Below, one piece after another: positions 9,513 through 26,239 of a stretch of DNA of 32,000 nt (positions are counted from its first letter, which is position 1; every line of letters begins with the position of its first letter). Source of the DNA: an uncultured Erysipelotrichaceae bacterium (GTDB taxonomy: Bacteria > Bacillota_I > Bacilli_A > Erysipelotrichales > Erysipelotrichaceae). Location of the stretch: NCBI GenBank assembly GCA_942493105.1, contig OW818668.1, positions 1,920,001 to 1,952,000 on the forward strand. The letters run 5' to 3'. Below the pieces are notes generated by a model. The model ran no database searches. It saw only the letters and a program-made list of their open reading frames with translations, and had not been told where the DNA came from. Made by a program: the position numbers and the translations under genes.

Positions 9513-9553
9513 TTGAGCGCTCCTTTAACTTCAATGAGTTTATTCATAGACTC

Positions 9554-9562
9554 ATTATAACA
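9554..9562 (-). promoter_or_regulatory. Extended -10 (TGTTATAAT) upstream of the Crp/Fnr gene
   Basis: Minus-strand TGTTATAAT lies about 45 nt upstream of the start codon at 9512. Confidence 0.4.
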
Positions 9563-9627
9563 AATAGCATTCCAGTTACTTTGTTCCACTACTTTTCTAT
9601 TGTGGATCCTCTAGTTCAAATCTGCAA

Positions 9628-9696
9628 GGCATTTTTTTCTCCTATTGTACGCATACATCTTTAACATTGTAGCCCTACAAAAGTCGACCTATTCCA
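9628..9696 (-). mobile_element. Truncated copy of the IS3-family left end (terminal repeat, 5' UTR and start codon only)
   Basis: ggcattttttt-ctcctattgtacgcatacatctttaacattgtagccctacaaaagtcgacctattcca aligns with 14631-14697 of the full IS, in the same orientation. Homology stops at the ATGCC start. Confidence 0.65.
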
Positions 9697-10088
9697 ATCT
9701 TACGTTTGCGGGGATATGCCAACGCTTTTTCTGTTCGTGGGAATATATCAATGTATGTTAATAACAGTTGCTATAAATTGTATCTTATAGCATTTCATAG
9801 AGTTCATCCACCTCTAACCAGTTTGGTCTTTTAGTCCAAATAAAAGCCCACCGACTATTTAGACTAATTCAATTTGAGTTTAGACGGATTTTATGATGTT
9901 CTGCGACAAGGTAAATAATTGTCCAAAACCAAGTAAGGTGCTCTACGAGTTTAAACGTAGAGTGCCTAGCTTGGTTCTTCTGTTTATAAAAGATAGAAAT
10001 GATTTCATGAACTGCTAATTGGCTCCAGCCCTGAATAATTGAAGCTTTTATCAAGAATAATTGAGATCGAACGCCGGAGTGTACAGTA

Positions 10089-10466
10089 CTATAGAGTTTG
10101 CTCTGCCGACTCAATTGTTATTATTAATGCTGCCCTTGCCCACGGAAATCTCTTTTTAATTGCCTCAAAATCCGCGCCTTCTTTTTTAAACACAGCAATA
10201 CCTTTAATTAAGAACCCTGTCCCTTTATAGGCTTTTCCCTCAACTTCTCTATTTGCTATTGTTAACTGGACCTTATTGTTTCTAACGATATTCCTTTCCG
10301 TTTCAGTCATTCGACCTGCGGGGATAATCAGTTTTTCTTCGTCAGTCACCTGCACGTAGCTATTCCATGAGTTTATTACATGTGGTTCATTAAAGCCCTG
10401 TGTAACAATTGCCAAGGCGGCATCGGGAGGGGTAGTAAGCACTTCCATAAGCTTTTTGTTGATCAT
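10089..10466 (-). CDS. Pyridoxamine 5'-phosphate oxidase-family (FMN-binding split-barrel) protein
   Basis: 125-aa ORF of typical length and pattern for this family (AIVTQG...PHVINSW...IPAGRM...GTGFLIKG). Confidence 0.7.
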   Translation of the reverse strand: MINKKLMEVLTTPPDAALAIVTQGFNEPHVINSWNSYVQVTDEEKLIIPAGRMTETERNIVRNNKVQLTIANREVEGKAYKGTGFLIKGIAVFKKEGADFEAIKKRFPWARAALIITIESAEQTL

Positions 10467-10524
10467 TTTTACACTCCGATCATTTCGTTTAATTGTGATT
10501 AATCACTAAATAATGTATTGTTGT

Positions 10525-11175
10525 CTACTTTAATCTAAGACAAGGACCATGCCCTGCAGCTATCAAATCAGGGCTTAACTGAGACAAAGTTTCCTGCATT
10601 TGACTATATAGCAATGGGTCGGGTATCTGAGTTGGACGGATGTTGCTAATTTCGGTATTCCAAGTTGAATCTACTATGATTCCATCAACCTCTCCTGGCC
10701 TTATCATTATATCGCTGCTAAAGAAAATGCCCCGTTGATTTTCTATAACGAATAAGCCTTCCCAAAGGTGCATTTCAGAGGGATAACCAATAAATTCTAA
10801 CTCACATGAATTAGAGCTAAGTTTTTCACCAGACTTTTTAATTATAACTTCGTTTTTATACCCGAACCCACCAAGTTGACGTGCAGTTATTTTCGAACAA
10901 ATCGTTTTAGCCTCAGGGAAATTATCTAAAATTATAGATAACCCGCCACACTCGTCTGATTCAAAGTGGGAAACAAAAATATATTTTAGTATTTTGCCAT
11001 TAAGTGCTGTTTTTAATTGTGGTATCAAAGCGGTAGCCATATGGATATCACCCGTATGAAATAGAATAGGTCCATCTGCCAAAAGTAAATATTGATTAAA
11101 CGAAAGATTGATTGGCTGAATGTATGTGCTAAATTGATATAAATCCTGTCCAATTAATAACATTTGCGTTTTCAC
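10525..11175 (-). CDS. Metallo-beta-lactamase-fold protein resembling the di-iron domain of flavodiiron/ODP proteins
   Basis: 216-aa ORF. It has SHFESDECGG (an H-x-E-x-D pattern like the FDP metal site) and a C-terminal GHGP. It has no flavodoxin domain. Confidence 0.65.
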   Translation of the reverse strand: MKTQMLLIGQDLYQFSTYIQPINLSFNQYLLLADGPILFHTGDIHMATALIPQLKTALNGKILKYIFVSHFESDECGGLSIILDNFPEAKTICSKITARQLGGFGYKNEVIIKKSGEKLSSNSCELEFIGYPSEMHLWEGLFVIENQRGIFFSSDIMIRPGEVDGIIVDSTWNTEISNIRPTQIPDPLLYSQMQETLSQLSPDLIAAGHGPCLRLK

Positions 11176-11352
11176 CTTTGTAAAAACTATTAAATTTGTA
11201 AATTAGTTCTCTCCGATAATATGATTAATATACTTCATTTATCTTTTTGCAATTTAAACCTTGAAAAAATAACATTCAAACAGTACAATGACTTCAAAAC
11301 AATCATTTGGAAATCAGCTGTCCATTTGTCTGATACCAATCGCTTAAACTTT

Positions 11353-11472
11353 ATGATAAAAAAGGTTAGAAATAATAGAAATGCTATTATTGTACAGCAT
11401 GAAGTATACGGGGTAAACAAATTTATTGAAGATATTTGTGAAGAGTATCATGCACAGTTTATCTTCGATTGA
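11353..11472 (+). pseudogene. Short N-terminal relic resembling a dienelactone hydrolase
   Basis: Only about 30 aa (NAIIVQHEVYGVNKFIEDICEEY) match the usual xxVxHExxGxNxHIxD start of that family. The ORF then stops. Confidence 0.3.
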
Positions 11473-11538
11473 ATCAAAATCCCCAATAAGACTGTCAACT
11501 CATCTATTGCAGCAAAACACACTTTTTTTGATCAGTTA

Positions 11539-13414: not shown

Positions 13415-14634
13415 TCATATACGCATACCCAATTCGTTTGTTTTCACGGTTTTTCCCACCTTATATCTCTTATAATACTCTGCCGGCGATAAGTTATCAA
13501 ATCGACTATGCATACGTTTGCGATTATAAAAAAAATCAATATATTCAAATAAACTTCGTTCTAACTATTCTGGATTTTGATACTTCCGATGATGGACCCA
13601 TTCTTTCTTCAGTGTCGCAAAAAAACTCTCTGCACAGGCGTTGTCATAGGGATTTCCGCCACGGCTCATGCTGCTTTGGATGAGGTGTTCTTCGAGATAT
13701 CGATGGTAAGCTTTACTGCTGTACTGACACCCGCGATCACTGTGAAACAGTAAACTCTCTTGGGGTTTGCGATTCGTCAAGGCGATGGCTATCGCTCTCA
13801 TCGTCAGTTGACTGTTTGATTTCTTGCTTAAGGCATAGCCAACTACTTCTCGATTGAAAAGATCAATCACCGTTGCGACAAAGACCCATCCTTCGACCGT
13901 CTTGACATAAGTGATGTCCCCGCACCAGACTTTATCGGGTTCATTCACGTTAAACGAGCGGTCTAACGCATTCTCACTATATCTTTTCTCAATGTCTTCT
14001 TTCGGATAAGGAGTGAATTTCTTCCTGGATATACAATAAAGTCCGTTTTCTCTCATAAATCGCCGGATTCGTCCCAAACAACAGTGAATGTCCTTTAGGA
14101 TTAATGCATCCTGGATCCTTTTGGGTCCATAGGTTTCTTTATTCTCAATATGTATCTCTTTGATCACTTGAGTCAATGCTTCATCCTCGATTTGGCGAAC
14201 TGTCTTCTTCTTGTTTCTCCAACGGTAGTATCCGCTTTCCTTAACCCGAAACGCTTTGCACATCCTTACTACCACGAACTCTGAGCGATATTCTTCCATA
14301 AACTCATACTTCATCACTTGGGTTGCATAAAGATGCGCATGGACTTTTTTAAGACACTCACCTACTCTTCTAATTCTCGAATTTTTTTCTCTTACTCTTT
14401 TAATATCGCAGCGAGTTCTTTCTCACTTTTAGACGCGATCGCTTTATGACCTTTTGTTTCATGGTAGGTAGGCAACTGATTACTTCTTCGATGTTCTCTC
14501 ACCCACTTACAGACCGTATTCGTATCGATCCCCATTTCCTCTGCGACGCTGGTGGCGGACTTCCCACTTTCTAAAATATAGCTCACGGTTCGTTAACGTA
14601 TTTCAGGGGTATATTTACTATTATTGCTTGGCAT
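13415..14634 (-). pseudogene. IS3 transposase orfAB interrupted by four in-frame stop codons
   Basis: orfA reads MPSNNSKYTPEIR*RTVSYILESGKSATSVAEEMGIDTNTVCKWV...LKE*EKKIRELEE*VSVLKK. orfB reads ...[40 protein letters not shown]. The stops are TAA 14593-14595, TAA 14392-14394, TAG 14362-14364 and TAG 13565-13567. The frame is preserved across every stop. Confidence 0.8.
14344..14350 (-). other. Programmed -1 ribosomal frameshift heptamer A_AAA_AAG of the IS3 transposase
   Basis: In orfA frame the sequence is TTA AAA AAG. A -1 slip reads KKVHAHLYATQVMKYEFMEEY, which continues into orfB. Confidence 0.7.
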
Positions 14635-14758
14635 TGGTGCTCCTTTTGTACTCATACAACTTTAACATTGTGGCTCTACAAAAGTCGACCTATTCCAAAT
14701 CGTGATATGTTTTAATTTCTAATTAAGTTATGATAAACGCTTAAACCTATGAATTTGT

Positions 14759-15103
14759 TTATTTGATTTTAGCTTCTTCGATGGTTTGGTTGACAGCATC
14801 CAAGATTGCGTTATAAGTATACGTAGCCCCAGCATAGGTGTCTAAACCTTCAGTTGATTGAGCTGTGACGATCTTCGCTGGCAATTGTGCCAAAACATCT
14901 GCAGCAATCTCCTCAGTTTCGACTTGACTGATGATCGTGACGGTAACGATCTTGTCGTTTTTGAATTCAACTGATACAACGACAGGTCCTTTTTTACCTT
15001 CACTGGTTCCTTCATAAGTTCCGTTTTTATAGATCTTCGGGCCTGATGCACAAGCGCCAAGTAAGAGCGTGCCTATGATGGCCAATAGTAATAATTTCTT
15101 CAT
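14759..15103 (-). CDS. FMN-binding domain lipoprotein
   Basis: 114-aa ORF with a lipobox (LLLGAC). The FMN_bind pattern is present: GTYEGTSEGKKGPVVVSVEF...ETEEI...YAGATYT. Confidence 0.8.
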   Translation of the reverse strand: MKKLLLLAIIGTLLLGACASGPKIYKNGTYEGTSEGKKGPVVVSVEFKNDKIVTVTIISQVETEEIAADVLAQLPAKIVTAQSTEGLDTYAGATYTYNAILDAVNQTIEEAKIK

Positions 15104-15370: not shown

Positions 15371-16096
15371 TTACCCTAAGTTTCGACCGGGGGGGAGGCT
15401 CGGACGAAACTTAAGGAACCACTCGTGGATATATCGCTGCCATTCGACTTGATATGGCAGTTTATCCTTATCGTTATAGAGTCTTGCGAGGCATTCTTCT
15501 TCAGATGCCTGAATGAAGATCAGCTCAGCCCCAAGACTAGTGGCTAAGCGATCTCTGTCTGTATTGAGTGGATATCCACCGATGATCCAGGCTTGTGTCC
15601 ACTTTCCTGTTCGAGTTCTGATTTGATCTAGTAAGGCATCTCTGAGTAGGAACACATTGGTGGATAGTTCAAGTGGCTTGTCATAAGCTGGTAGTAGAGT
15701 TATGGCTTGATAGAGTTCATCTAGATCCAGGACCAAGTCACTACGCCTCTTATGAGCCTTAACATAGCTTGTTTTGCCTGAGAGTGGTGCACCATAGACT
15801 AGATAGACTTTTTGTCCTGATCCTTGCCCGAAGCGTTCATGGATCTGGTTATGGCACAGGTGATGAACCAGTAAGATGTTGTTTGGATTGAAGCTGACTT
15901 TAACGTCATTCACATTCATTGAAGTTAACTCAATGATGTGATGTGCAATACATTCATGATCCTTTAAGATCGGTTCATGACATTTCTGACAAAGCAGTCC
16001 CTTTTCCGGAGTGCTACGTTCAATCATCAGTCGTTTTCTCAATGTGATCCATTCTGGTGATTTATAGAAGTCTGACAATGTCTTATATTTAGCCAT
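15371..16096 (-). CDS. HNH endonuclease fused to a P-loop NTPase/kinase-like domain
   Basis: 241-aa ORF. The HNH part is CQKCHEPI...HHIIEL...VHHLCHNQIH. A Walker A follows (YGAPLSGKTSYV). The start overlaps the terS stop (TAATG). Confidence 0.7.
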   Translation of the reverse strand: MAKYKTLSDFYKSPEWITLRKRLMIERSTPEKGLLCQKCHEPILKDHECIAHHIIELTSMNVNDVKVSFNPNNILLVHHLCHNQIHERFGQGSGQKVYLVYGAPLSGKTSYVKAHKRRSDLVLDLDELYQAITLLPAYDKPLELSTNVFLLRDALLDQIRTRTGKWTQAWIIGGYPLNTDRDRLATSLGAELIFIQASEEECLARLYNDKDKLPYQVEWQRYIHEWFLKFRPSLPPGRNLG

Positions 16097-16551
16097 TACC
16101 AGTTGCCTTCTTTAGCCAATCTTTCTCTAAGTTCCAGCTCTTGTTTCTTTAGCTGCAACATTTGAGGATTATCGGAGTAGTGTTCGGGATCTTTATTTTT
16201 CAATAGCCCAAACAAGGCTCCGGTATCCGGTGGTTGATGCTTCTTGGTGATCTCTGTATAGGTGACAGCTTGACCATTCTCAGTCTTGGTGTAGACTTTC
16301 TTTTCTTCATAGTCATACCCAAGCGCCTTTTTGATTAAAGCATTCTCAAGTTCAGTGATCAGTGATTCCTTCCCTTTTTTAAGGGCCTTCAAAAACTCAG
16401 GATAATCTTTCTTGTATAACTCGAGAGTCGTTACTGAAATACCTAAGGTTTTAGCGATCTTTTCTTCACTGATTCCATCTCTCGCCCACTTCTCGACCAG
16501 GTGCAATTTGGCTTTGACAGATTCCCATTTACTCTTGGCCAACTTGATCAC
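16096..16551 (-). CDS. terS: Phage terminase small subunit
   Basis: 151-aa ORF. It has an N-terminal HTH (ISEEKIAKTLGISVTTLELYKK) and the pattern ALIKKALGYDYEE...PPDTGALFGLLKNKDPEHY, which is typical of Firmicute-phage TerS. Confidence 0.75.
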   Translation of the reverse strand: MIKLAKSKWESVKAKLHLVEKWARDGISEEKIAKTLGISVTTLELYKKDYPEFLKALKKGKESLITELENALIKKALGYDYEEKKVYTKTENGQAVTYTEITKKHQPPDTGALFGLLKNKDPEHYSDNPQMLQLKKQELELRERLAKEGNW

Positions 16552-16602
16552 CTCTTCACATCAAACCTTACCAAATAAAAAAACTTCGGTAAGTACCGAA
16601 GT

Positions 16603-18684
16603 TTAGCTAACTTGCATGATTTTATCACATATAGCGATAATGTAGTTTGGGATCTGATTAAAGTGATATTGGTTTAGTGAATATAGATAATCATTCTCTA
16701 TATGATACGATTCATCAATATATTTCCAAAGTATTTTGTTCTCCTCACTTGAGCCATTCTTTGCGCCGTAAAATCGAGTTAAGTGAATCTTGCTAATATC
16801 AGCACTGGTCAAATACAGTTGAAGAATTACATCATTATTAGAATAATTTTTGATAAAGACATCATAATCGAACTCTTTAATGAACATTCTAATCGAATTC
16901 TGCCCTTCTCTAAGTTCAACTTCAGTAAGGTCTCTATTATTCTCATCACTAATTCTCCAATATGGCTTTTCGCTATGTTTCAGAAAACTTGAGATAAGAT
17001 GATATTCAGGTGTATTCAACTTATTGGTTAATTCTAGATATTTTCTCAGATGAACCAGTCTGCTAACCATATTTATCGAGGAATCCTTTGAATTTGCTTC
17101 TTCACTTTTCACGATATTCATTAAACAATCCTTGCTAATCTCAAGTTCTTGAATATCATTGTTATTCAAAACTAAGTATGTAGCCACACATAAATCCCTG
17201 CTAGGTCTTCCAATATAGACTAGATCTATAACCGGAACTAGATCATGTGTAAGCAATAAGACAGTCTTATTACAAAAATTCTCATGACGACTGCTTTTAA
17301 ATAAGTGGTGGAATATTGCGTATTTTTTATTTGTATCAAATGAAGATACTGGGTCGTCAAGAATAACTAAATCTGGCTTCTTTGCATTTGCTTCAATTGA
17401 AAACAAAATTAGTGATATCGCATTAAACTCTCCATAACTCAAACTCGATGAACTAACAATAACCTCACTTTGTCGTTTTGGTCTCAAAACTGTTTTGAAA
17501 ATAGTGTTATTCTCTGGTAAAACAGCAATCTCATATGGTATTCCTGATAAGGTCAAGAACTCATTAACGTATATTAGAGCCTTATCAATGTTTGATGACA
17601 ACACCGAATTGAGAGCTCCGAGACCTATAATTAGATCATCGATAATTTTGATTGTTTGTTCGATATTTGTGTTAATATCAACTGACAATTGAAACATATT
17701 TTCATTAATCTCTTCAAATAGACTAGTGTTAAGCTTTTGCTGTTCTAGATAAGTCTTTAGTGTTCTTTCTTTCAGATTATCTAGTAACTTTATTGGAGAC
17801 AGACTTTTTAAGCGATTCAACTTGTCTTTCTCGTTTTTGAGGATTTCAAGGTGAGACTCAATTAGTCTCGCTTTGTGATTTGGAATTTGAGTTGTTAATG
17901 CTGCAATTTCCCTTAATTCAGACTTCAACATGGGTGTCGAATAATATGTAAACTTCCCCAAGATCTCCTTTGAAGTAATGTTGTTCTTAACAACCGTATT
18001 GTCAAAAGTCGCCTTAATTTGATTTCTTTGTTGTGGAAACGCAGCATTTAGCTCCCCGAGACAAAAAGGGCATTCAGTCTCATCAATAATCACTGAATCA
18101 GCCTCTTTAAACCACTTGCTCCAACTAGCTACTTTATCAGACAAGATATATTTTCTATAGGGTTCTACCAAATCGGTTATTAATTGATCGAAGTTCCCGC
18201 TTTTATATCCTTTTCCAAACTTAGTTCTTGAATCAACGTCATGATTACCTGTGAAACTAATATCGGTTGAAAAGGATTCCACAGTTGTGATAAATTGTTG
18301 AATTTGATCAATAGATACTAAACTAATAATGCCATTCAATTTTCCTTCTATTTCGTTCTTCTTTTGCTCATAATTCGGGGTTTTTACCACTAATTCATAG
18401 GTATTGTTAATTACATCATTCTTGTATAAGCAATTGTCAATGTACTGTTTATCAAATATCATGCAAGTTTTAATAAGATCAGGAATGTCTACAGTTGGAA
18501 TTATCTGAGATCCATATTTTTTTAGTTCTGTAAGCTTATCAGGATTATTCAATTGTGCACTAATAGCTTTTCCTATAGTGGTTTTTCCAAGGCCATTGCA
18601 TCCTAATTTAAGATTCAGTTTGTTTGGCACAACACTAATCAATGCACAATCGAAGTTCCCTGCTTTCTTTACTTTAATATCCAT
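16603..18684 (-). CDS. ABC/SMC-type ATPase of the AAA_13 (PrrC/RloC-like) kind with an uncharacterised C-terminal domain
   Basis: 693-aa ORF. The ATPase motifs are Walker A GCNGLGKTT (aa 28-36), signature-like LSYGE (415-419), Walker B LVILDD (439-444) and LLLTHD (476-481). A roughly 370-aa insert between Walker A and the signature contains CPFC (205-208). The C-terminal 200 aa contain RKYLE and ESYHIEN. RBS GGGAGGGG. Confidence 0.75.
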   Translation of the reverse strand: MDIKVKKAGNFDCALISVVPNKLNLKLGCNGLGKTTIGKAISAQLNNPDKLTELKKYGSQIIPTVDIPDLIKTCMIFDKQYIDNCLYKNDVINNTYELVVKTPNYEQKKNEIEGKLNGIISLVSIDQIQQFITTVESFSTDISFTGNHDVDSRTKFGKGYKSGNFDQLITDLVEPYRKYILSDKVASWSKWFKEADSVIIDETECPFCLGELNAAFPQQRNQIKATFDNTVVKNNITSKEILGKFTYYSTPMLKSELREIAALTTQIPNHKARLIESHLEILKNEKDKLNRLKSLSPIKLLDNLKERTLKTYLEQQKLNTSLFEEINENMFQLSVDINTNIEQTIKIIDDLIIGLGALNSVLSSNIDKALIYVNEFLTLSGIPYEIAVLPENNTIFKTVLRPKRQSEVIVSSSSLSYGEFNAISLILFSIEANAKKPDLVILDDPVSSFDTNKKYAIFHHLFKSSRHENFCNKTVLLLTHDLVPVIDLVYIGRPSRDLCVATYLVLNNNDIQELEISKDCLMNIVKSEEANSKDSSINMVSRLVHLRKYLELTNKLNTPEYHLISSFLKHSEKPYWRISDENNRDLTEVELREGQNSIRMFIKEFDYDVFIKNYSNNDVILQLYLTSADISKIHLTRFYGAKNGSSEENKILWKYIDESYHIENDYLYSLNQYHFNQIPNYIIAICDKIMQVS

Positions 18685-18808
18685 TGTCCCCTCCCGGTTT
18701 TGGTTATCATTTTCATATTCTAAATTATTTGCAAGATAACCTTTACATTATAATTCACATCAATTGTCATCATTATACCGCTTATTTACTAGAGATTTTG
18801 TTAGATTT

Positions 18809-19564
18809 TTACTGCCAATACTTTTTGGGAGAATCGACCACTTTTTTCGGCTCTTTAGAGATCGGTTTTTGTATCTTTTTTTTCTTATCTTGAATCTTTT
18901 TTTGTGGTTCCTGTTTCTTTACTGGTGGTTCATAATCAACTAGAAACCATTCGATGTCAATTCGTCTTTCGTCCAGAATCCTATAGTATATGTATTTATC
19001 GAAATATTTCTTTATCTGATCAACGATTTCGTCATTAATCTGCTTTAGTCCAGAAATCTTATACACCCATTCAGGTTCCATGTCCTTTTCAACTGCTTTT
19101 TCTGTTGTTGGGACTTTGCCTGTATGATCAAAACCACCGTATTCCTCATTCCAGAACGGCTTCATTTCAATAATCTTCTTTCCTCTATTCTTGTTATAAA
19201 GTGTTGTTGCTATTAAATATATAGGTCCACGGATCCCTTCAGTTCTTTGTTTGGATATATCCTCATGGGCCACTTCCCATGTTATGGCTCTGCATAATGA
19301 GGTATATTCTACATCGGATTGATCTTGAGTCTTTTTGGGATACTTAGGAAGAATTTTCCTATCAAACAATTCAACTATCATGTAGTTAAACCCTGACCGG
19401 CCATAGCTTCTTGATCTATAATCATACCCAACAACATCGATCCACTTCGATTTTGTGTCAAGATCATTCACATTAATTTTCACAAAAAATACGACTTGTG
19501 ATTCTTCAGTCTTAATGTAGGTAGAATATCGCTTAAGAAGTGATTTGTAATTGTTGTCAATCAT
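18809..19564 (-). CDS. Hypothetical protein with lysine-rich C-terminal tail
   Basis: The ORF starts at the ATG at 19564 (MIDNNYKSLL) behind GGGGGAAAG. I recognise no motif. The tail is PPVKKQEPQKKIQDKKKKIQKPISKEPKK. Confidence 0.6.
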   Translation of the reverse strand: MIDNNYKSLLKRYSTYIKTEESQVVFFVKINVNDLDTKSKWIDVVGYDYRSRSYGRSGFNYMIVELFDRKILPKYPKKTQDQSDVEYTSLCRAITWEVAHEDISKQRTEGIRGPIYLIATTLYNKNRGKKIIEMKPFWNEEYGGFDHTGKVPTTEKAVEKDMEPEWVYKISGLKQINDEIVDQIKKYFDKYIYYRILDERRIDIEWFLVDYEPPVKKQEPQKKIQDKKKKIQKPISKEPKKVVDSPKKYWQ

Positions 19565-19649
19565 ACTTTCCCCCAAAAATGCTCGCTAATACAAATATTA
19601 TCACTTAATGTATTCGTGGTAAACAAATGTTTATTGTATTCTGATTTGA

Positions 19650-19874
19650 TTATGAAACAACTTTAATTTCTTTTGTATACAAACCAATTAAGAAATCTTC
19701 ATACTGCATTTTGAAACCCTCAAATTCGATTGTTATGTCAGTGTTGGCGAGTTGCTCCTGGGTGATCTCACCAAGTACTTCCATAATGGCTTGTTCCTCT
19801 ATTCCTTCAATCGTAATAATTTGTCCACTTCGTTTACCAGTATGATATTGAATAACAACTGTATATTGATCCAT
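19650..19874 (-). CDS. Hypothetical small acidic protein
   Basis: 74-aa ORF with a GAGGTG RBS. It is the first gene after the terminator at 19922-19980. Confidence 0.55.
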   Translation of the reverse strand: MDQYTVVIQYHTGKRSGQIITIEGIEEQAIMEVLGEITQEQLANTDITIEFEGFKMQYEDFLIGLYTKEIKVVS

Positions 19875-19921
19875 GTTTCACCTCAATTCTTTATTCGCAT
19901 AGGATTTGGATGTTCCTAAAA

Positions 19922-19980
19922 TAAAAAAAGAACTCGCTACTGGGGGATAATGGGGGATCATCTGGTAGCGGGTTCTTTTT
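19922..19980. terminator. Bidirectional rho-independent terminator separating the ParB-methylase from the accessory cassette
   Basis: A 12-bp stem, agaactcgctac (19929-19940) pairing with gtagcgggttct (19965-19976), has one mismatch or wobble. It is flanked by an A8 run and a T5 run. The loop carries tggggga twice. Confidence 0.6.
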
Positions 19981-20003
19981 GATTATAAACTATTTTTAGT
20001 TAT

Positions 20004-21320
20004 TCAATCCTGAAACTTTATTGCTTTTCGTTTAGTATGATCTTCCCATCGGGTTACAATCACATCCACATATCTTGGATCCAGTTCCATGGCATAGCAG
20101 GTCCGTTCTAATTGATCTGCAGCTATGAGAGTTGAGCCGCTGCCAGCGAAGGGTTCATACACGAGTTGACCCTTTATACTGGAATTCTTAATCAGCTTGC
20201 CAATCAGCGGGATGGGCTTCATCGTTGGATGCAGATCACTCTTGAGTGGTTTGTTTTCATAGAGGACTGTAGATTGTTGATCATCCATGATTCTCTTCAG
20301 GATCTCGACGAGTTCCTCTTTCTTCATCTTCTCGATGCTTTGAGTATCATCGAACACAGTTGCCTGGGTTCGGTCATCCACGAAGTAGTGTCCTACCCCT
20401 TCCTTCCAACCATACAAGATCGGCTCATGTCTCCAATGGTAATCATGCCGGCTGAGATTGAACGAATTCTTTACCCAGATTAGATTCTCTGAAAACTTGA
20501 ATCCGGCTTTCTGAAATGCATACTCGAAGCTCAGACGCTCTACATCACTGTGGAAGACATAGATGACTCCCCCGATCTTCAGGTGCTCATAAGCGTTGGT
20601 ATACATTGCCAAGAGGAAATGGTAGAAGTTGTTGCTGTCCATGTGGTCATTGAGGATCTCGTTGTTCTTCCGTTGGCCATTCTTGAACATCTTGTGGTAG
20701 TCAATCTTATTCTCATAATTCACATTGTAGGGTGGATCGGTGACGATCAAGTCAGCGAGCTTTCCTTGCATGAGCATCAGCACGTCATTTGGATCCGTAC
20801 TATCGCCACACATCAACCGATGTTCTCCCAGCTGATAGATACACCCTCTCTTTGACTTCGGTTCTTCTATGGCTTCTAAAGCGCCTTCCACATCGAATTC
20901 ATCATCAGTAGCCACACCGGTATCCATTTTGGCCATGAGCTCTTTGATCTCTTCATCATCGAAGCCGGTCATCCCAACATCGATCTGGTTCTCCAGCTCT
21001 AGGAGAAGATCCTTGAGCTTGTCCATCTGCCATTCCCCAGAGATTTTATTGAGGGCTATATTGAGGGCTTTCTCTTTGACCTTGTCAACATCCACGATGA
21101 TGACATCGACTTCCTGGTAGCCCATGTCTTTGAGTACTGTGGCTCTTTGATGACCCCCGATGATGGTCAGGTCATGATTGACGATGATCGGATCCACATA
21201 GCCGAATTCCTGGATACTGCGTTTGATCTTTTCGTATTCCGGATCCCCACTCTTTAGAGCTTTCCTGGGGTTGTAGTCTGCGTATTTAAGGTCTGTAATG
21301 ACCATTTTATTAAGTTGCAT
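20004..21320 (-). CDS. ParB-like nuclease domain fused to N4/N6 DNA methyltransferase (phage orphan methylase type)
   Basis: 438-aa ORF. It has an N-terminal ParB-N pattern (YNPRK...IIGGHQR), LIVTDPPYNV (motif IV) and EPFAGSGSTLIAA (motif I), in beta-class order. Confidence 0.85.
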   Translation of the reverse strand: MQLNKMVITDLKYADYNPRKALKSGDPEYEKIKRSIQEFGYVDPIIVNHDLTIIGGHQRATVLKDMGYQEVDVIIVDVDKVKEKALNIALNKISGEWQMDKLKDLLLELENQIDVGMTGFDDEEIKELMAKMDTGVATDDEFDVEGALEAIEEPKSKRGCIYQLGEHRLMCGDSTDPNDVLMLMQGKLADLIVTDPPYNVNYENKIDYHKMFKNGQRKNNEILNDHMDSNNFYHFLLAMYTNAYEHLKIGGVIYVFHSDVERLSFEYAFQKAGFKFSENLIWVKNSFNLSRHDYHWRHEPILYGWKEGVGHYFVDDRTQATVFDDTQSIEKMKKEELVEILKRIMDDQQSTVLYENKPLKSDLHPTMKPIPLIGKLIKNSSIKGQLVYEPFAGSGSTLIAADQLERTCYAMELDPRYVDVIVTRWEDHTKRKAIKFQD

Positions 21321-21330
21321 TGAGTTTCCT

Positions 21331-21625
21331 TTAGAATGGCTTTATCAGTCTTAGATAAGCTGCCTGGAGGGTGATCTCATTGACCAATCGGTTTCTCCAG
21401 ACATAGTAGGTCGTCTTCTCAACATTTAGCATTTCGAAGATGTTTTGTTCTGGTAGCTTTTGAACATATTTTAGCTGCATGAGCTTGCCAATTTCAGTTC
21501 CCTCATACTTCTGAAACATGCCTTCAATGATGGTGGGACCATCTCTGATCATCCAGCACCTTGGATTCTTTGACTTTCTGGCGGTTGTAGAGGTAGTATT
21601 CGACGCTTTCGCGATATTTATTCAT
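21331..21625 (-). pseudogene. Phage late-regulator-like protein (sigma-70 region-4-like HTH, ArpU/RinA-like) with its reading frame split
   Basis: The ATG at 21625 overlaps the DnaC-like stop (ATGAATAA) and reads MNKYRESVEYYLYNRQKVKESKVLDDQR before stopping. The track ORF 21331-21552 continues in another frame (IRDGPTIIEG...LPEQNIFEMLNVEKTTYYVWRNRL). Confidence 0.45.
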
Positions 21626-22428
21626 ATTTTTCCCTTTCTCTCATACGGATATTCATGTGTTGATTCTGGTTGAGCTGAGTACAGTACCCCTTTGTCTTCT
21701 CGAAGATCCTAGAGGCAATGGCTTCATCGATGGCCATGAGTTCTTTTATGACCTTCTCACTGCTGATGATGGTAATCAAGTCTTTATTCTGGTACCTCGC
21801 ATTGAGGATCTCAAAGGCGATGGTGATGTCAGTGGTTGATGGTGACTTCCCTTTCTCGGTTTTGAAGAGGTCATCGATATACAAGACTTCCTTCGTTTTG
21901 AACGGTTCAATCACTTTCATATACTCTTTTCCATCAGCAACAAATGATTTGAGTTTGACAACTTCTTCTCGCCAAAGCATATATAGCGCCTGTTTCCCTT
22001 GCTTCATCAGCTCATTGACGATTGCGGTACAGATGTGGGTCTTGCCGGCTCCAACTTGGCCACCAATGAAGAACCAATGGGCTTTATCACTCACAAAGGC
22101 TTGAGCTGATTCTTTGATGATCCGCTGCCACATCGCTTTTCCTTCAAATGTTTCAAAAGTGTAGTCCTGGATCATCTTTTGCATTCCGCTCTGTTGGACA
22201 TTCACTTTGTTTTGACGTTGCCTTTGGCATTCGCAAGGCTTTAGAGCTTTATACCCTTCATCCAGAATCATGATGTAGCCCTTGTTTTTGCAGGTTCGAC
22301 AATCCTTTCCCTTGAGATACCCTTCCTCTTCGTTATAGCGTTGGATCTGAACTTCTATACTTATACTTTGATTGGAAAGCTGCTGATTTCTGAAAGGATC
22401 CGGCAAACTTTCTTGAATGGATTTCATC
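21618..22428 (-). CDS. DnaC/IstB-like helicase-loader ATPase
   Basis: Walker A GGQVGAGKTH and Walker B EVLYIDDLF, with an N-terminal Cys cluster (CRTCKNKGY...CEC). I prefer the ATG at 22428 (GAGGT RBS) to the track start at 22469. Confidence 0.8.
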
Positions 22429-22478
22429 AGTTTTACCTCGATTTTTATTCTCGGCCTTGATTTACTCAAGTGAACTTA

Positions 22479-22624
22479 AGTGACATGTTTATTTTTCCAT
22501 CAAGGGGGAGGAGTTTATAAGTTTTTCTTTAAGTATTATCTTTGTATTACTTCTATAACTTCTAAATCTTCTTATATATAGAAGGAAAAAGTAGTGACAA
22601 GTATAATGACATTGATAGTGACAT
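22479..22624. repeat. Iteron-like short repeats and AT-rich palindrome; candidate replication origin
   Basis: The motif (a/t)agtgaca or aatgaca occurs at 22479, 22593, 22605 and 22617; the last three have 12-bp spacing. There are three tandem 9-mers, tacttctat/aacttctaa/atcttctta (22548-22574). The palindrome cttct-tatatat-agaag lies at 22568-22584. Confidence 0.5.
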
Positions 22625-22626
22625 TT

Positions 22627-23028
22627 TCAAGAGGATTTGGCGATTTTCTCTCTTAACCTTTTTGCTTTTTGGACATTTTTGTTATCTTCACGGATCTTGG
22701 CCATCTTCTTTGTGCTCTGGTATTTCTCCCAGTTTTTAATTCGAATAACATTATCTTCGATGGTGATCATATCCTGTTGAAGGTATTCATTTAAGACCTT
22801 TTTCATCAAAGCAACTGGATAGCCGAGATACGCGGCCAAGTCTTTAGCATCATAGGGAACGTCTCCTGCCACCATCAGCCTTCCATCCGCGTTGGATTCA
22901 CCTCCAACAAGCAGAAGCAACACCCATATGTAGGCAATAGTTGATCCTTGAGGTAAAGTTTTGAGATACCTCATTTTCTTGTTATGGATGAGGTCAAGAT
23001 GAACCTTGATCCACATTATTTTCTTCAT
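22627..23028 (-). CDS. Phage replisome organizer, N-terminal domain protein
   Basis: 133-aa ORF. WIKVHLDLIHNKKMRYLKTLPQGSTIAYIWVLLLLVGGESNADGRL matches the usual pattern of that family. Confidence 0.7.
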   Translation of the reverse strand: MKKIMWIKVHLDLIHNKKMRYLKTLPQGSTIAYIWVLLLLVGGESNADGRLMVAGDVPYDAKDLAAYLGYPVALMKKVLNEYLQQDMITIEDNVIRIKNWEKYQSTKKMAKIREDNKNVQKAKRLREKIAKSS

Positions 23029-23030
23029 GG

Positions 23031-23894
23031 TTATTCCCCTTTGGTTTTCTGTGATCTAAGCTTTTCCAGCTTGTCACGCTTTTCTTCAATGGAGGATCGG
23101 GTATAGATACGAGTCGTCTCCAAGGAACTGTGACCTAGGATGTCCGCTAGATCCAAGACATTGTTGTATTGAGCCATAAATGACTTCGCAAACAGATGCC
23201 TGAAACTATGCGGATGAACCTTGTTGAGATTCACTCGTGCTGTTCCGGCGATCTTCTTCATCTGTCTCCAGATGGTGGAATAACTGATGGTGAAGATCGG
23301 ACCATCCTGGATCCGGTGATCTCGACAGTATTTCCTCAGTTCTCGGGTCAGTTCCTGAGTTAGGATGATATCTCTTTCCTTACCCTTGTTCTTCACATTG
23401 AAGTGATAATTTTTCAAATTGGCTACAGTAAACCACTCGAGCTCATTGATACGGATCCCGGTGGTTAAAATGATTTTCATGATCAGGTAGAGATCGTCTC
23501 TACCCCTTTTTTTCGCAAATCGTAATAGTCGCTTGGCATCTGCTTCAGTGACCACATTGGAGATGCTTGATTTTTGTTGCGTCTTGATTTGACGGACCCT
23601 AAGGTCGCCTTGACCGCACCACTTCAGAAAGGTATTCAGGATAGTGAGGTAATTATTGATACTGGAGGTCTGGTACCGTCCGTCGCATAGAAGGTCCTTA
23701 TACTCCAGAATATGTTCTTTCGTGATTTCCAGGTCATCGGGAATGAAGTCAATGAACTTCTGGACATCTCTTGTGTATTTCGAGAGTGTCTTTTTACTTT
23801 TCTCATTGAGTCTTTGTTCCTGTATGAATTGGGACTGCTTATCAACATAGTCTTCCTTACGCATGATCGATTGACCTGCTTGGGCAAGATCCAT
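23031..23894 (-). CDS. Tyrosine recombinase (XerC/D-like), second recombinase of the element
   Basis: 287-aa ORF with TGIRINEL, HSFRHLFA and LGHSSLETTRIYT (R..HxxR..Y pattern). The start codon is uncertain because there is no clear RBS at 23894. Confidence 0.8.
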   Translation of the reverse strand: MDLAQAGQSIMRKEDYVDKQSQFIQEQRLNEKSKKTLSKYTRDVQKFIDFIPDDLEITKEHILEYKDLLCDGRYQTSSINNYLTILNTFLKWCGQGDLRVRQIKTQQKSSISNVVTEADAKRLLRFAKKRGRDDLYLIMKIILTTGIRINELEWFTVANLKNYHFNVKNKGKERDIILTQELTRELRKYCRDHRIQDGPIFTISYSTIWRQMKKIAGTARVNLNKVHPHSFRHLFAKSFMAQYNNVLDLADILGHSSLETTRIYTRSSIEEKRDKLEKLRSQKTKGE

Positions 23895-23932
23895 GAAGTG
23901 ACTGTGTCAAATGAAATTTGTCTCTTGAGACT

Positions 23933-24187
23933 TTAATTGGACAGTTCACCGGTCTCCTGGTACTGGACAGCGTTTTGTTCTTTATATTGCTTCAGTGCGA
24001 AACTATAATTGAGTCCTAAGACCTTGAACACCAGTTGTGAAGGGACCTTGTTGGGACGGATGTTCATAGGATCGTTTTCCAGCTTCTTACAAGCTTCAAA
24101 CACCTTAGACACATTCTCCCATCTAGTACCGCCTAACAGCTCTCTTATGTCGCTTTTGGTCGCATAGGGGCTAAATAGTATCTTCAT
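23933..24187 (-). CDS. Hypothetical early-region protein
   Basis: 84-aa ORF with a GGAGGT RBS, directly downstream of cro. No family recognised. Confidence 0.5.
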   Translation of the reverse strand: MKILFSPYATKSDIRELLGGTRWENVSKVFEACKKLENDPMNIRPNKVPSQLVFKVLGLNYSFALKQYKEQNAVQYQETGELSN

Positions 24188-24225
24188 AAGCCGACCTCCG
24201 ATTCATCAATGCACAATACGTGATT

Positions 24226-24426
24226 TCATTCTGTGAAGAACAACAGATCGACACGAGTGTCATAGAATTTGGATATTTGTGCCTTCACAGCATCTCTGGG
24301 CACTCTGGTTCCATTCTCATAGGATTCCAGTGCTCTGATCGTAATTCCAATCGCTTTGGCTACTTCTTCTCTACTTTTACCTCCTCTCAGTTCTACAAGT
24401 CGTTTGGCAATGTTACTTCGTTCCAT
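24226..24426 (-). CDS. Cro-like XRE-family HTH regulator
   Basis: 66-aa ORF with the HTH SREEVAKAIGITIRALESYENG. It is divergent from the cI-like gene. RBS GAGGAAGG. Confidence 0.8.
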   Translation of the reverse strand: MERSNIAKRLVELRGGKSREEVAKAIGITIRALESYENGTRVPRDAVKAQISKFYDTRVDLLFFTE

Positions 24427-24581
24427 GCCTTCCTCATTTCTCCCATACCTCGGGGTCCATGCGGTGTCCTCACCGCACTGTGATTATATGCTAGAATATT
24501 TCTTAACCAGTGTCAACTCATTAAGTGAATTTCACAATCACAGCACATTTAGTGTGTTATACTGTTTTTGAGGTAAATATC
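24427..24581. promoter_or_regulatory. Divergent cI/cro switch region
   Basis: On the minus strand, TTGACA (plus 24511-24516) is followed after 17 nt by TAGCAT. On the plus strand there is TGCTAGAAT (24489-24497). Other elements are the hairpin gcggtg-tcct-caccgc (24461-24476) and TGTGATT / AATCACA half-sites at 24479-24485 and 24535-24541. Confidence 0.5.
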
Positions 24582-25217
24582 ATGGCCACATTTGGTGAAC
24601 GTTTACGTGAATTAAGAAAAGCATCAGGTATGATGCAAAAAGAACTGGCAGCTGCCGTTGGGATGGGTGAAAGTACCATCAGCATGTACGAAAAAGAGAA
24701 CCGGGAACCGGACTTCGAAACCCTTGAGATGTTTGCGGATTACTTCAATGTCGATATCAACTACATCCTTGGTCGTACCGAAACAACCACCTACATCCCT
24801 TCTACTCGACCTAGATTCATAGTCAGGAAGGTCCCGGTCTACGGGAGGATCCCGGCTGGTACTCCATTTGAAGCAATCCAGGATACCTATGGCGAAGTGG
24901 ATGTCCCTTCTCAGTTTCAAAACAAGGAAGATCTGTTTGGGTTACTGGTTGTTGGGGACTCTATGAACCGGGTTATTCCGGATGGCTACATTGCCCTTCT
25001 GCAGAAAACCGATGTACTTCAGAATGGCGAGATTGGTGCAGTTATGATAAACGGGTACGATGCGACCCTAAAGAAGTTTTTTAAGTTAACGGACTACGTG
25101 GTTTTAGAACCACTCAGTTATAATCCCGATCACAAGCCAACGATGATCGGATCAGATGGTCCAGAGATCCGCGTGATCGGAAAGCTGCTGTGGGCTTGCA
25201 CAGCAAAGGGGTGGTAA
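24582..25217 (+). CDS. cI/LexA-like repressor (XRE HTH plus S24 peptidase domain)
   Basis: The start is at ATG 24582 behind GAGGT. The HTH is MQKELAAAVGMGESTISMYE. The S24 motifs are VVGDSM (Ser) and TLKKF (Lys). Confidence 0.85.
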   Translation: MATFGERLRELRKASGMMQKELAAAVGMGESTISMYEKENREPDFETLEMFADYFNVDINYILGRTETTTYIPSTRPRFIVRKVPVYGRIPAGTPFEAIQDTYGEVDVPSQFQNKEDLFGLLVVGDSMNRVIPDGYIALLQKTDVLQNGEIGAVMINGYDATLKKFFKLTDYVVLEPLSYNPDHKPTMIGSDGPEIRVIGKLLWACTAKGW

Positions 25218-25218
25218 T

Positions 25219-26148
25219 ATGAAGTATAACAAAGATAAAGTGATTGATACTCTTATTAGAGTTGAAGAAGGCTTGGGCAAAGTTGTACTATTTTCGATTC
25301 TAGTTCTTGAATTTTTAGTGGTAATGAGTTTCTTTGTTGTGGGATTTCCATATGGCATTGTTGCCGCTATCATAACAATTTCACTTGATATAGTTATAGC
25401 GGCTGGTTTCGGAAAACCTAATATCAATCTAACTTTTATTGGGGCAGCGATATTAATAATTCTGTTTGGTACAGTTGGGGTATACTCAATCATTTTTATC
25501 ATACTTAGAAATCCAGATCGTTTTTCAGGTTCAATTGTTGGACATTCATCCGATTGGATTGCATTTTCAGGGTCCATTATTGGTGGAATGATGACAATGT
25601 TGGCAGTTATCTACACGATTCAACATGAGAAAATTCTAAGAAAACAAGAACAAATTGACCAAATCAAGCCATTCATTCACATTGACTTGAAAATGTATGA
25701 GAATAGTCGAAAATATGCATTTAACGATCGTGATGAAATGATAAGTTTATATTTACAAGTAAATAATATCTCGAACAATAATCTCAGAGATTTCCAGATT
25801 AAGGATATTGTTCGTAAATCTAATCTAACAGATGCGTTAGACGATCTGATAATCCAAGAAAGAATTCCAGATAATTATCTCAGCAGCAGTGAGAATAAAT
25901 TAGGGTTAATAAAGGCTAACTCACTTCAAACCTTGTATTTAAGTTTTGTTTATCTTGAAAAAAGTAAAACTATTGGTAATTTATCAAGGAATGTATACCT
26001 AACTATCATTTCAGAATATTTTGATGTTTTTGGTAATGGACCATATAGCCACGAGACCAAGATAAATTTACGACATATATCGAATAATATAAGCGGAACT
26101 AGATATGAAGAATTCTATGTAGACAAGATTGAGAATAATGCAAAATAA
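25219..26148 (+). CDS. Membrane protein of unknown function, co-transcribed with the repressor
   Basis: 309-aa ORF starting 1 nt after the cI stop (TAATATG). It has about 4 N-terminal hydrophobic helices and then a soluble domain of about 170 aa. Confidence 0.6.
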   Translation: MKYNKDKVIDTLIRVEEGLGKVVLFSILVLEFLVVMSFFVVGFPYGIVAAIITISLDIVIAAGFGKPNINLTFIGAAILIILFGTVGVYSIIFIILRNPDRFSGSIVGHSSDWIAFSGSIIGGMMTMLAVIYTIQHEKILRKQEQIDQIKPFIHIDLKMYENSRKYAFNDRDEMISLYLQVNNISNNNLRDFQIKDIVRKSNLTDALDDLIIQERIPDNYLSSSENKLGLIKANSLQTLYLSFVYLEKSKTIGNLSRNVYLTIISEYFDVFGNGPYSHETKINLRHISNNISGTRYEEFYVDKIENNAK

Positions 26149-26150
26149 AA

Positions 26151-26172
26151 CACTCCAGCAGTAACTGGAGTG
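26151..26172 (+). terminator. Hairpin after the cI operon
   Basis: cactccag (26151-26158) pairs with ctggagtg (26165-26172), with a 6-nt loop. No T-tract follows. Confidence 0.35.
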
Positions 26173-26239
26173 CGGTACAACTAACCTTTGCACGGGCTTT
26201 GTTGTGCCTTCATTATAACAAAAATGGAGGAATGTGAAA

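Follow-up and report, generated by a model that had tools for sequence, protein, structure and literature searches.

RloC proteins, as defined by Davidov and Kaufmann (PMC2610378), are 658–897 amino acids (aa) long and have an ABC ATPase head that is split by an insert containing a coiled coil and a CxxC zinc hook. Their C-terminal domain carries the anticodon nuclease (ACNase) triad Arg-x3-Glu-x36–52-His, which is R692/E696/H737 in Geobacillus kaustophilus and in which Ser often precedes the His (PMC2610378). RloC of G. kaustophilus and Acinetobacter baylyi is an anticodon nuclease that excises the wobble nucleotide, and a RloC mutant with an altered hook (C291G) is hyperactive. PrrC is shorter (341–416 aa), lacks the coiled-coil and hook insert and is always linked to restriction-modification (R-M) genes (PMC2610378). 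In addition, prophage ABC-HEPN proteins of the APECO1_4465 type have been proposed to exclude other phages (Anantharaman et al. 2013, PMC3710099). Here we describe a gene for a 693-aa ATPase with a RloC-type layout, which is found in the cargo slot of a phage-derived element in a stretch of 32,000 nucleotides (nt) from an uncultured Erysipelotrichaceae bacterium (contig OW818668.1, positions 1,920,001 to 1,952,000). This whole stretch is called the window below, and the relatives with which the locus was compared carry L numbers (L001, L005, L009 etc.).

The minus strand has three co-oriented open reading frames (ORFs) of 693, 251 and 74 aa, bounded by a strong terminator on one side and by the packaging genes on the other; we refer to the products of the two smaller ones as p251 and p74. 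An earlier, sequence-only reading took the three genes to be a candidate for an undescribed defence system in which one of the small proteins could be an effector and the other an antitoxin-like inhibitor of the kind found in toxin-antitoxin (TA) pairs. Our comparison separates them. The 693-aa gene is most likely a defence gene, as that reading had supposed; its family recurs beside R-M and defence genes, on plasmids and in prophages. Probably it acts by itself, as a single-gene cassette of RloC type for defence or exclusion, and it belongs to the PDLC04889 branch of the PADLOC family PDC-S06, and neither p251 nor p74 is its partner.

A RloC-like ATPase of the PDC-S06 family

By its full-length profile match, the window ATPase is a member of PDC-S06, a catalogued family of single-gene anti-phage candidates. 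The sub-model PDLC04889 matches it with an E value of 1.5e-151, residues 1–691 being aligned with positions 1–688 of the 693 in the model, and the homologue in the related element L001 matches the same sub-model at 1.1e-160. Membership is judged by a full-length hidden Markov model match and the lack of an obligatory partner, and both were found here; length and single-gene organisation agree with the family, and there is no difference at the sequence level. Pfam AAA_13 also recognises the protein (39.2 bits against a threshold of 36), as does the unannotated PHROGs family phrog_2801. NCBIfam gave only ABC-transporter fragments, and PDB sequence searches with the whole ATPase and with the family profile retrieved only generic ABC transporter heads; these matches fall on the lobe formed by residues 415–481. 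Of the profile searches that had been suggested as a check, those of Pfam and PADLOC place the ATPase, in AAA_13 and PDC-S06, and return nothing meaningful for p251 or p74.

The system cannot be called undescribed, since PADLOC already lists the family and other members of it are called RloC by DefenseFinder. In a survey of B. cereus (PMC11811056, Supplementary file 6), EJR26746.1 and EJR26942.1 are PDC-S06 by PADLOC and RloC by DefenseFinder. Because PDC-S06 has many sub-models, this equates the group with RloC and not necessarily the PDLC04889 branch. In S. thermophilus ST55, too, a PDC-S06 call by PADLOC consists of one ORF.

All of the ATPase motifs named in the sequence-only reading are at the residues given there. 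The signature LSYGE (residues 415–419), Walker B LVILDD (439–444) and the H-loop LLLTHD (476–481) follow Walker A after an insert, the distance from Walker A to the signature being ~380 residues. S416, D443, D444 and H480 are each present in 208 of 208 family members, so that Walker A, signature, Walker B/D-loop and linchpin His are all present in the family, as they are in RloC. W188 and W191 stand before the CPFC motif in the insert.

To compare the family with canonical RloC we used a set of six proteins, consisting of an ATPase from the same slot in the related element L009 and five plasmid proteins, all of which carry ...DW[V]..G..Y....CPFCQ and MRNILE-x40/53-SH. A profile of the window family (48 sequences) aligns with this set over residues 1–494 (hhalign 99.6%, E 2.8e-24). 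The alignment spans Walker A, the insert, the W..G..Y..CPFC hook blocks and the H-loop, and ends where the ATPase head ends. Against a single canonical RloC, only the stretch from signature to H-loop was aligned. Thus the predicted Rad50-like ABC head, with its ~380-aa insert and CPxC tip, is homologous to that of canonical RloC-like proteins by profile comparison. The RloC-type layout that had been recognised earlier (a split head, an insert with a CxxC hook, and a further domain at the C terminus) is upheld. The likeness extends to the invariant C205-P-x-C208 in a long insert, for which a coiled-coil fold and zinc binding are putative, to the length of 693 aa, which is inside the RloC range, to the extra domain of ~190 aa after the head, and to an organisation as a single gene that in some homologues, as in RloC (PMC2610378), is inside a type I R-M locus.

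Other described systems are less similar. Like PrrC, the window protein has an ABC-type NTPase followed by a putative C-terminal effector domain, and some of its homologues are found in the order hsdM-hsdS-X-hsdR. However, it is much longer, has the insert and lies outside any R-M operon, and the PADLOC PrrC model is silent on it (E up to 0.1). The same model does recognise the canonical RloC of L009 (3e-14), which also matches other PDC-S06 sub-models and Pfam AAA_13 (2e-34). Proteins of the APECO1_4465 type resemble it, by their description, in having an ABC ATPase and an extra C-terminal domain and in being found in prophages and mobile islands, but the window domain has neither the HEPN signature (R-x4–6-H) nor a match to a HEPN family. 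PARIS, Septu and Gabija share with it a distant ABC-type ATPase fold over part of the head (AriA 2e-7, residues 311–463; PtuA 0.03). These systems need AriB, PtuB or GajB, whereas no such partner is present in the window or conserved near the homologues, and p251 and p74 match none of the three.

The family is common. A word-indexed search found 220 clusters of homologues of ~690–720 aa. Relatives of ~690 aa are encoded in at least 531 species-representative genomes, which belong to Bacillota, Bacteroidota, Pseudomonadota, Actinomycetota, Verrucomicrobiota, Chloroflexota and one methanogen. Among the 72,556 plasmids of PLSDB, 815 carry a relative and 607 of these are conjugative; they are mostly from E. 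coli, Salmonella and Klebsiella, and the annotation of their proteins does not go beyond 'AAA family ATPase' or 'hypothetical protein'. The plasmid proteins are ~28% identical to the window ATPase over the full length (e.g., L176, 6001–8139, on pOZ172, and L177). A DNA search with one plasmid allele, which is not the common one, found it in two E. coli genomes, and a megablast search of an 8-kb region of the window against phage genomes gave no match. The PDLC04889 branch of PDC-S06 is thus of interest as a common family, carried in part by mostly conjugative enterobacterial plasmids, in which a RloC-type sensor half is joined to a C-terminal domain that neither sequence nor fold libraries recognise.

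An exchangeable cassette between conserved signals

The ATPase gene occupies the last position of a hypervariable slot that extends, in a lineage of temperate siphophages, from a ParB-methyltransferase gene to the packaging genes. A search with the 151-aa protein encoded at the right border of the slot retrieved 31 loci from IMG/VR and 55 metagenome loci. The interval from the methyltransferase gene to the gene for the 151-aa protein is 1.3–6.4 kb, and the 46 ORFs found there in 16 elements are nearly all singletons. In contrast to this cargo, the ParB-methyltransferase is 72–98% identical in related phages whatever the slot contains, and the 151-aa and HNH genes are kept in more than 40 related loci. 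The accessory slot of a phage-derived element that had been proposed from the sequence is real, with hypervariable cargo between conserved backbone genes, and its three co-oriented genes do lie between a terminator and a terS-like gene, at the coordinates first given for them. The 151-aa protein matches PHROG 309 (terminase small subunit) with an E value of 1.6e-34. The terminator hairpin at the left border has a folding energy of -19.8 kcal/mol (z = -6.6 against shuffled sequences) with a U-run after the stem, and the first 67 nt of the spacer between the methyltransferase gene and p74, including part of this hairpin, are kept in L090/L091.

Within the slot, the ATPase gene has borders of its own. 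A promoter-like block is present 5' of the gene, and a terminator hairpin, AAACTTCGGTACTTACCGAAGTTTTTTTATT (window ~16575–16604), overlaps its stop codon; the latter had been overlooked in the sequence-only reading. A 50-nt core of the promoter block is 92% conserved in L090, L091, L009 and L122, and 79 nt are 99% identical in L005. The cargo behind the block differs from one relative to another: a 282-aa ORF in L090/L091, the canonical RloC in L009, ORFs of 199 and 166 aa in L005 and other cargo again in L122. Similarity between relatives stops a few bases past the block, right after CTTGCA, and resumes at the hairpin. A stretch of 25–51 nt that includes the hairpin is 91–100% conserved in more than 40 related phage loci, where it directly follows unrelated cargo. 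Since promoter block and terminator are kept around different cargo, the ATPase gene is one exchangeable cassette framed by the phage backbone.

Ribosome-binding sites (GAGGTG, GGGGGAAAG and GGGAGGGG) are visible 5' of all three starts, as had been noted. The promoter-like sequences pointed out at the same time are a more mixed case. The hexamers exist, but a generic sigma-70 scan found 19 sites where 18.4 are expected by chance in shuffled sequence, so promoter hexamers alone prove nothing here. The block upstream of the ATPase gene can be used as evidence only because it is kept in related phages.

Hotspots of temperate phages and their satellites, such as those of P2 and P4 and the accessory regions of phage-inducible chromosomal islands (PICI), hold swapped cargo at a fixed place between backbone genes. 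The slot described here is a typical prophage hotspot of this kind, with a fixed position and with cargo that varies by relative and includes UzuA, canonical RloC, a GmrSD_N protein and PDC-S54. It differs in being neatly framed: the sub-slot of the ATPase gene is bounded by the conserved 58-nt block and the hairpin, and the backbone provides the expression signals. In L009, whose backbone proteins are 86–97% identical to those of the window element (methyltransferase 97%, p73 96%, DnaC 86%), the same sub-slot holds the canonical RloC (9331–11532), which has a CPFC hook and RYILE-x53-SH and is ~22% identical to the window ATPase. In L001, a PDC-S06 ATPase that is 41% identical to that of the window is encoded just before the same terminator, and a gene for UzuA (2342–2995, E 7.5e-85) is located upstream of it, indicating that independent defence genes are stacked in the slot. 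Other defence-type cargo in relatives includes a PDC-M49A-like ATPase, and cargo of other kinds consists of a P-type metal ATPase, an ABC/FtsX transporter, a PocR-GGDEF-HD protein and PcfJ. We also considered the ATPase as a conserved part of a satellite, because in the window, L001 and L009 the terS-like gene comes after a gene of this kind, and rejected this since ~40 related backbones carry other cargo. For this phage lineage, the site amounts to a natural and cleanly delimited place for cassettes, and it can serve as a source of candidate defence genes and as a landmark for mining: the cassette position itself has yielded canonical RloC, the RloC-like variant and unrelated ORFs, and the wider slot Uzume, GmrSD-like and PDC-S54 genes.

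The C-terminal domain and a possible mode of action

The region that follows the ATPase head (residues 496–693) is specific to the family. An AlphaFold model of it, made with 27 aligned homologues, has a mean predicted local distance difference test score (pLDDT) of 89.9 and a predicted template modelling score (pTM) of 0.87, and consists of three strands followed by about nine helices and a small hairpin. The three strands in the model probably complete the ATPase head. Searching 1.84 billion representative proteins with a profile of the domain gave 571 clusters, and the 150 clusters listed are either proteins of ~690–720 aa with the domain at ~500–700 or shorter proteins that end in the domain, which are probably N-terminally truncated fragments. 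Because all the matches listed show the RloC-like architecture or resemble fragments of it, the domain appears to be exclusive to that architecture.

Several residues in this domain are nearly invariant among the 208 full-length members. R547 and H661 are present in all of them and R637 in 207, so that the three are conserved as tightly as K34, D443/D444 and H480 of the ATPase head. Also well conserved are N664 (204), E663 (201), K632 (199) and E551 (182). This Arg/Arg/His/Glu set would be compatible with the metal-independent type of RNase site known from PrrC, RloC and the HEPN enzymes, and by this analogy we tentatively propose that the domain may be an RNase. The R-x3-E motif that had been singled out as a lead is part of LRKYLE (residues 546–551), and its Arg, R547, is indeed invariant; the rest of the RloC triad did not hold up, as described next. 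By eye, LRKYLE resembles the MRNILE of canonical RloC and WKYIDESYH resembles YRAINRHSH (K/R-x6-H), a resemblance that has no statistical support.

A number of results weigh against reading the gene as a RloC-type nuclease cassette. The C-terminal profile shows no detectable homology to the C-terminal domains of canonical RloC (hhalign 0.2%, the canonical set being six sequences), which is the principal difference between the window ATPase and RloC; with 99.6% for the head against 0.2% for this region, the N-terminal 500 residues are RloC-like by homology and the C-terminal domain detectably is not. The spacing of the RloC triad is different, since H661 comes 109 residues after E551, against 40–53 in the canonical proteins, and there is no conserved His at 36–52, and E551 is itself replaced by Q (16) or D (7) in 23 of 208 members (~11%). 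Foldseek comparison of the model with the PDB gave a best E value of 1.3 with template modelling (TM) scores below 0.25, and the domain profile found nothing domain-specific among PDB sequences, only generic ABC heads. Pfam searches with individual members of the domain family gave no recurring family, HEPN included. As no similarity to a known nuclease was found, the nuclease assignment rests on analogy and on the invariant Arg, His and Glu. Position in the slot alone is no proof of a defence role either, since non-defence cargo occurs there too. Finally, the papers found contain no functional tests of PDC-S06, and the family appears in them as PADLOC output only.

The domain could have a function other than cleavage. 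The protein would then be a machine resembling SMC proteins and Rad50 that binds DNA and excludes or traps what is foreign, or the domain would serve as a sensor or adaptor and bring in a host factor. Such a role would agree with the Rad50-like head and hook, with the restriction of the domain to this family and with the failure of fold, profile and Pfam searches to connect it with any nuclease. However, the invariant Arg, Arg and His together with Glu and Asn in a domain of 190 aa resemble a catalytic site, the closest characterised relatives, RloC and PrrC, place their effector at exactly this position (PMC2610378, PMC3710099), and there is no conserved partner gene that could supply an effector in its stead. 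We therefore consider a non-nuclease function unlikely.

If the ATPase is a RloC-type cassette, its action can be pictured by analogy with RloC biochemistry (PMC2610378, PMC3458546 and PMC3874168). Two protomers would pair through the zinc-bound hook, and the DNA-dependent head would bind DNA and ATP and sense a cue of infection, which might be broken or unmodified DNA or failed restriction. Sensing of the cue would release the C-terminal domain, which, as a metal-independent RNase, could cut tRNA or another RNA of translation. The infected cell would be halted (abortive infection) or a superinfecting phage blocked.

It is also conceivable, though rather unlikely, that the C-terminal domain is a new kind of effector and not a diverged HEPN ACNase, and that p251 is, separately, a new single-gene defence or counter-defence protein. 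With such an effector, the PDLC04889 branch, which is widespread (at least 531 genomes and 815 mostly enterobacterial plasmids), would be a RloC-like defence family with a mechanism of its own.

Relation to restriction-modification genes

Clustering of the neighbours within 4 kb of 83 ATPase loci identified no conserved neighbour. The commonest neighbours belong to type I R-M systems (hsdM at 12 loci, hsdR at 10), and in several of these operons the order is hsdR-hsdM-hsdS-ATPase or hsdM-hsdS-ATPase-hsdR. Others that recur are Dcm/Vsr, type III Res, GmrSD-like and Fic genes and integrases. In L002, the homologue stands alone in a defence island, among genes for a KAP NTPase, a PLD-helicase and a SLFN-helicase. 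In L003, it adjoins methyltransferases, and on the two IncF plasmids that were examined the ATPase gene is alone beside genes for a Dcm methyltransferase and a type II endonuclease.

These arrangements raise the question of whether the ATPase is a guard in the style of PrrC, which would need an R-M enzyme (the ParB-methyltransferase or a host type I enzyme acting in trans) and would stay silent until this partner is inhibited. Some 14% of the homologue loci are inside type I R-M operons, some of them in the prr-like order hsdM-hsdS-ATPase-hsdR; the gene directly upstream of the homologue in L003 encodes an N6_N4 methyltransferase, type II R-M genes adjoin it on the IncF plasmids, and an interaction of RloC with R-M enzymes in trans has been proposed (PMC2610378). 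On the other hand, ~85% of the homologues have no R-M gene within 4 kb, and the PADLOC PrrC model, which recognises the canonical RloC in L009, misses the window ATPase. The methyltransferase of the window is present in the backbone whatever the cargo, and a terminator and two genes separate it from the ATPase gene. Dependence on R-M may apply to the 14% of homologues inside type I operons. Because the methyltransferase here is a backbone gene that is insulated by a terminator, such dependence is unlikely at the window, and we regard a guard of this kind as decidedly unlikely.

p74 and p251 are independent cargo

Nothing meaningful matches p251 or p74 in Pfam, PHROGs, NCBIfam or PADLOC, in agreement with the earlier remark that neither protein is recognisable. 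p251, which would have 255 aa if translated from an alternative TTG start at 19576, has homologues in 34 clusters. Its AlphaFold model (pLDDT 83.9) combines several helices with six long beta strands and ends in a Lys-rich tail (217–251) that is disordered, and Foldseek gave no significant fold match (best E 0.1 in the PDB and 0.0097 in BFVD, TM below 0.2). For both p251 and the C-terminal 200 aa of the ATPase, then, the proposed structure predictions yielded confident models, and the fold searches that were to follow gave no significant match. Several of the weak p251 hits are phage single-stranded DNA-binding (SSB) and OB-fold proteins, which we record as a lead only. A conserved small ORF 3' of p251 was considered and rejected, since the ORFs found there are unrelated.

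Homologues of p251 are found in varied surroundings. L008 has one beside Mrr, SEFIR/TIR and Dcm genes, L184 has one near MNT/HepT genes and an insertion sequence (IS) element, that of L185 lies between metabolic operons, and the contig P0128 has one near a Gp49/HTH pair. Neither the ATPase nor a conserved partner was found in these four contexts or in L005, L006 and L007, of which L006 covers only 994 bp and L007, near a contig end, only 199 bp upstream of the gene. In L005 and L006 the protein is 98% identical to the window copy and the spacer 100% identical, and being near-identical to the window these two loci are not independent evidence of linkage. p74 has homologues in five clusters. Relatives are encoded just after the methyltransferase gene in L009 (59% identity) and L090/L091 (49%), and also in L122 (67%) and L005 (84%), and they occur with or without p251 and with or without the ATPase. 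L090/L091 have nothing inserted at the site that separates p74 from the promoter block, and in L009 this site is taken by a Sel1 gene in reverse orientation. Thus p251 was inserted there independently, and p74 is a small gene that is carried along with the phage backbone.

It might be argued that p74 and p251, quite apart from the ATPase, make up a two-gene module such as a TA pair or a small defence pair. In the window and in L005 the two genes are neighbours with 85 bp between them, the L006 contig has only the last 21 codons of p74, and the surroundings of p251 homologues include Mrr, TIR, Dcm, TA and IS genes. However, p74 relatives lack p251 in L009, L090/L091 and L122, p251 relatives lack p74 in L008, L184 and L185, and none is present in the 199 bp upstream of the gene in L007. 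The joint occurrences are confined to near-identical copies of one lineage, and a p74–p251 module is accordingly very unlikely.

The three-gene system proposed at the outset, in which the ATPase would be the sensor, p251 the effector and p74 an antitoxin-like inhibitor, fares worse. In its favour are the co-orientation and adjacency of the genes between two terminators, the recurrence of p74 with p251 in L005 and L006, and the conserved, confidently folded core of p251. However, tblastn searches of the 8-kb flanks of 84 ATPase homologue loci found a relative of p251 or p74 at none of them, and no p251 context that was examined contains the ATPase, so that the co-occurrence of the three genes across genomes that had been suggested as a check is contradicted from both sides. 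L005 has the same p74–p251 pair and promoter block but other cargo behind them, and in L001, the closest related element with the same ATPase family, UzuA (Uzume) and unrelated ORFs take the upstream positions. The joint copies are near-identical to the window, and the ATPase gene has its own conserved promoter-like block. A joint system is extremely unlikely, and the locus should not be pursued as a new multi-gene system; the three genes are independent cargo units, and the ATPase has no partner in p251 or p74. p251 is nevertheless a lead in its own right, because it tends to sit among TA, R-M and IS genes: a small mobile orphan family whose confident model suggests a novel fold.

That the ATPase has nothing to do with defence and is instead a housekeeping protein, or serves phage DNA repair or replication, in the manner of SbcC, RecN or Rad50, as its Rad50-like head and hook and the weak precomputed SMC_N and AAA_21 Pfam matches of some homologues might suggest, is scarcely credible, since the examined neighbourhoods, including that of the window gene, lack an SbcD/Mre11-type nuclease partner, the family has the patchy spread of an accessory gene (plasmids, prophage slots and R-M islands), unrelated cargo replaces it in phages with the same backbone, and its 190-aa C-terminal domain is missing from Rad50 and SbcC.

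The host element

The element that carries the single-gene ATPase cassette is ~12 kb long (window 15371–27274; compare L090, 9662–14896). At least 25 of the related loci are full siphophages, in which the HNH gene is followed by a 156-aa gene and by genes for terL (547 aa), portal, protease and major capsid protein. No terL, portal, protease or capsid gene is present in the window, and both the window element and L001 end after the HNH gene. Because these virion genes are absent, the window element is a satellite or a decayed prophage. It has integrase, S24 repressor, replication organiser, DnaC, terS-like and HNH genes, its close relatives are full phages, and a decayed prophage is as likely as a satellite. 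The features of the locus and the element are listed in Table 1.

Table 1. Features of the ATPase locus and of the element that carries it (window coordinates)
Feature	Position	Strand	Evidence or remark
693-aa RloC-like ABC ATPase	16603..18684	-	PADLOC PDC-S06 sub-model PDLC04889, Pfam AAA_13, hhalign
Walker A GCNGLGKTT, residues 28–36 (K34)	18577..18603	-	K34 in 208/208 family members
CPFC, residues 205–208, putative zinc hook at insert tip	18061..18072	-	C205 208/208, C208 207/208
C-terminal lobe of ATPase head, residues 415–481 (LSYGE, LVILDD, LLLTHD)	17242..17442	-	conservation; ABC transporter matches
Family-specific C-terminal region, residues 496–693, putative effector	16606..17199	-	AlphaFold model, conservation
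Promoter-like block, 58 nt, two TATAAT boxes	18730..18787	-	conservation in related phages; backbone, left edge of sub-slot
Hairpin terminator overlapping ATPase stop codon	16571..16604	-	terminator scan (16581–16604); backbone, right edge of sub-slot
p251, 251-aa orphan with Lys-rich disordered tail	18809..19564	-	ORF listing; 34 homologue clusters
p74, 74-aa acidic protein	19650..19874	-	ORF listing; homologues in related phage backbones
Intrinsic terminator 3' of ParB-methyltransferase gene	19916..19980	-	folding: stem 19925–19980, then U-run
ParB_N + N6_N4 DNA methyltransferase, backbone, left slot border	20004..21320	-	Pfam
151-aa helix-turn-helix (HTH)/terS-like gene, backbone, right slot border	16096–16551	-	PHROG 309
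HNH gene, 241 aa, backbone, right slot border	15371–16096	-	PHROG 4581/119
p73, 73-aa ORF	21331–21552		
DnaC-like loader	21618–22469		
Replication organiser	22627–23028		
Second tyrosine recombinase	23031–23894		within replication module, between cro-like genes and replication organiser
S24 repressor	24525–25217		
309-aa ORF between integrase and S24 repressor	25219–26148		no Pfam/PADLOC match
Integrase	26234–27274		

Two genes of the element have counterparts at the same position in relatives: a recombinase ORF of similar size to the second tyrosine recombinase is found in L009 and L090, and L009 has a 322-aa ORF where the window has the 309-aa ORF. An exact direct repeat of 15 bp, TTTTGTACTCATACA, is present at 14644 and 29462, on both sides of the element, and is the only candidate pair of attachment (att) sites found. 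It would also enclose a gene for an FMN_bind lipoprotein (14759–15103) and a 405-aa ORF without a family match (27358–28575). The window contains no tRNA gene.

A transposase of the IS3 family, encoded in two frames (64 + 250 aa, 13565–14586), adjoins the truncated end of the element. An IS3 transposase is also found before the near-identical p74–p251 pair of L005.

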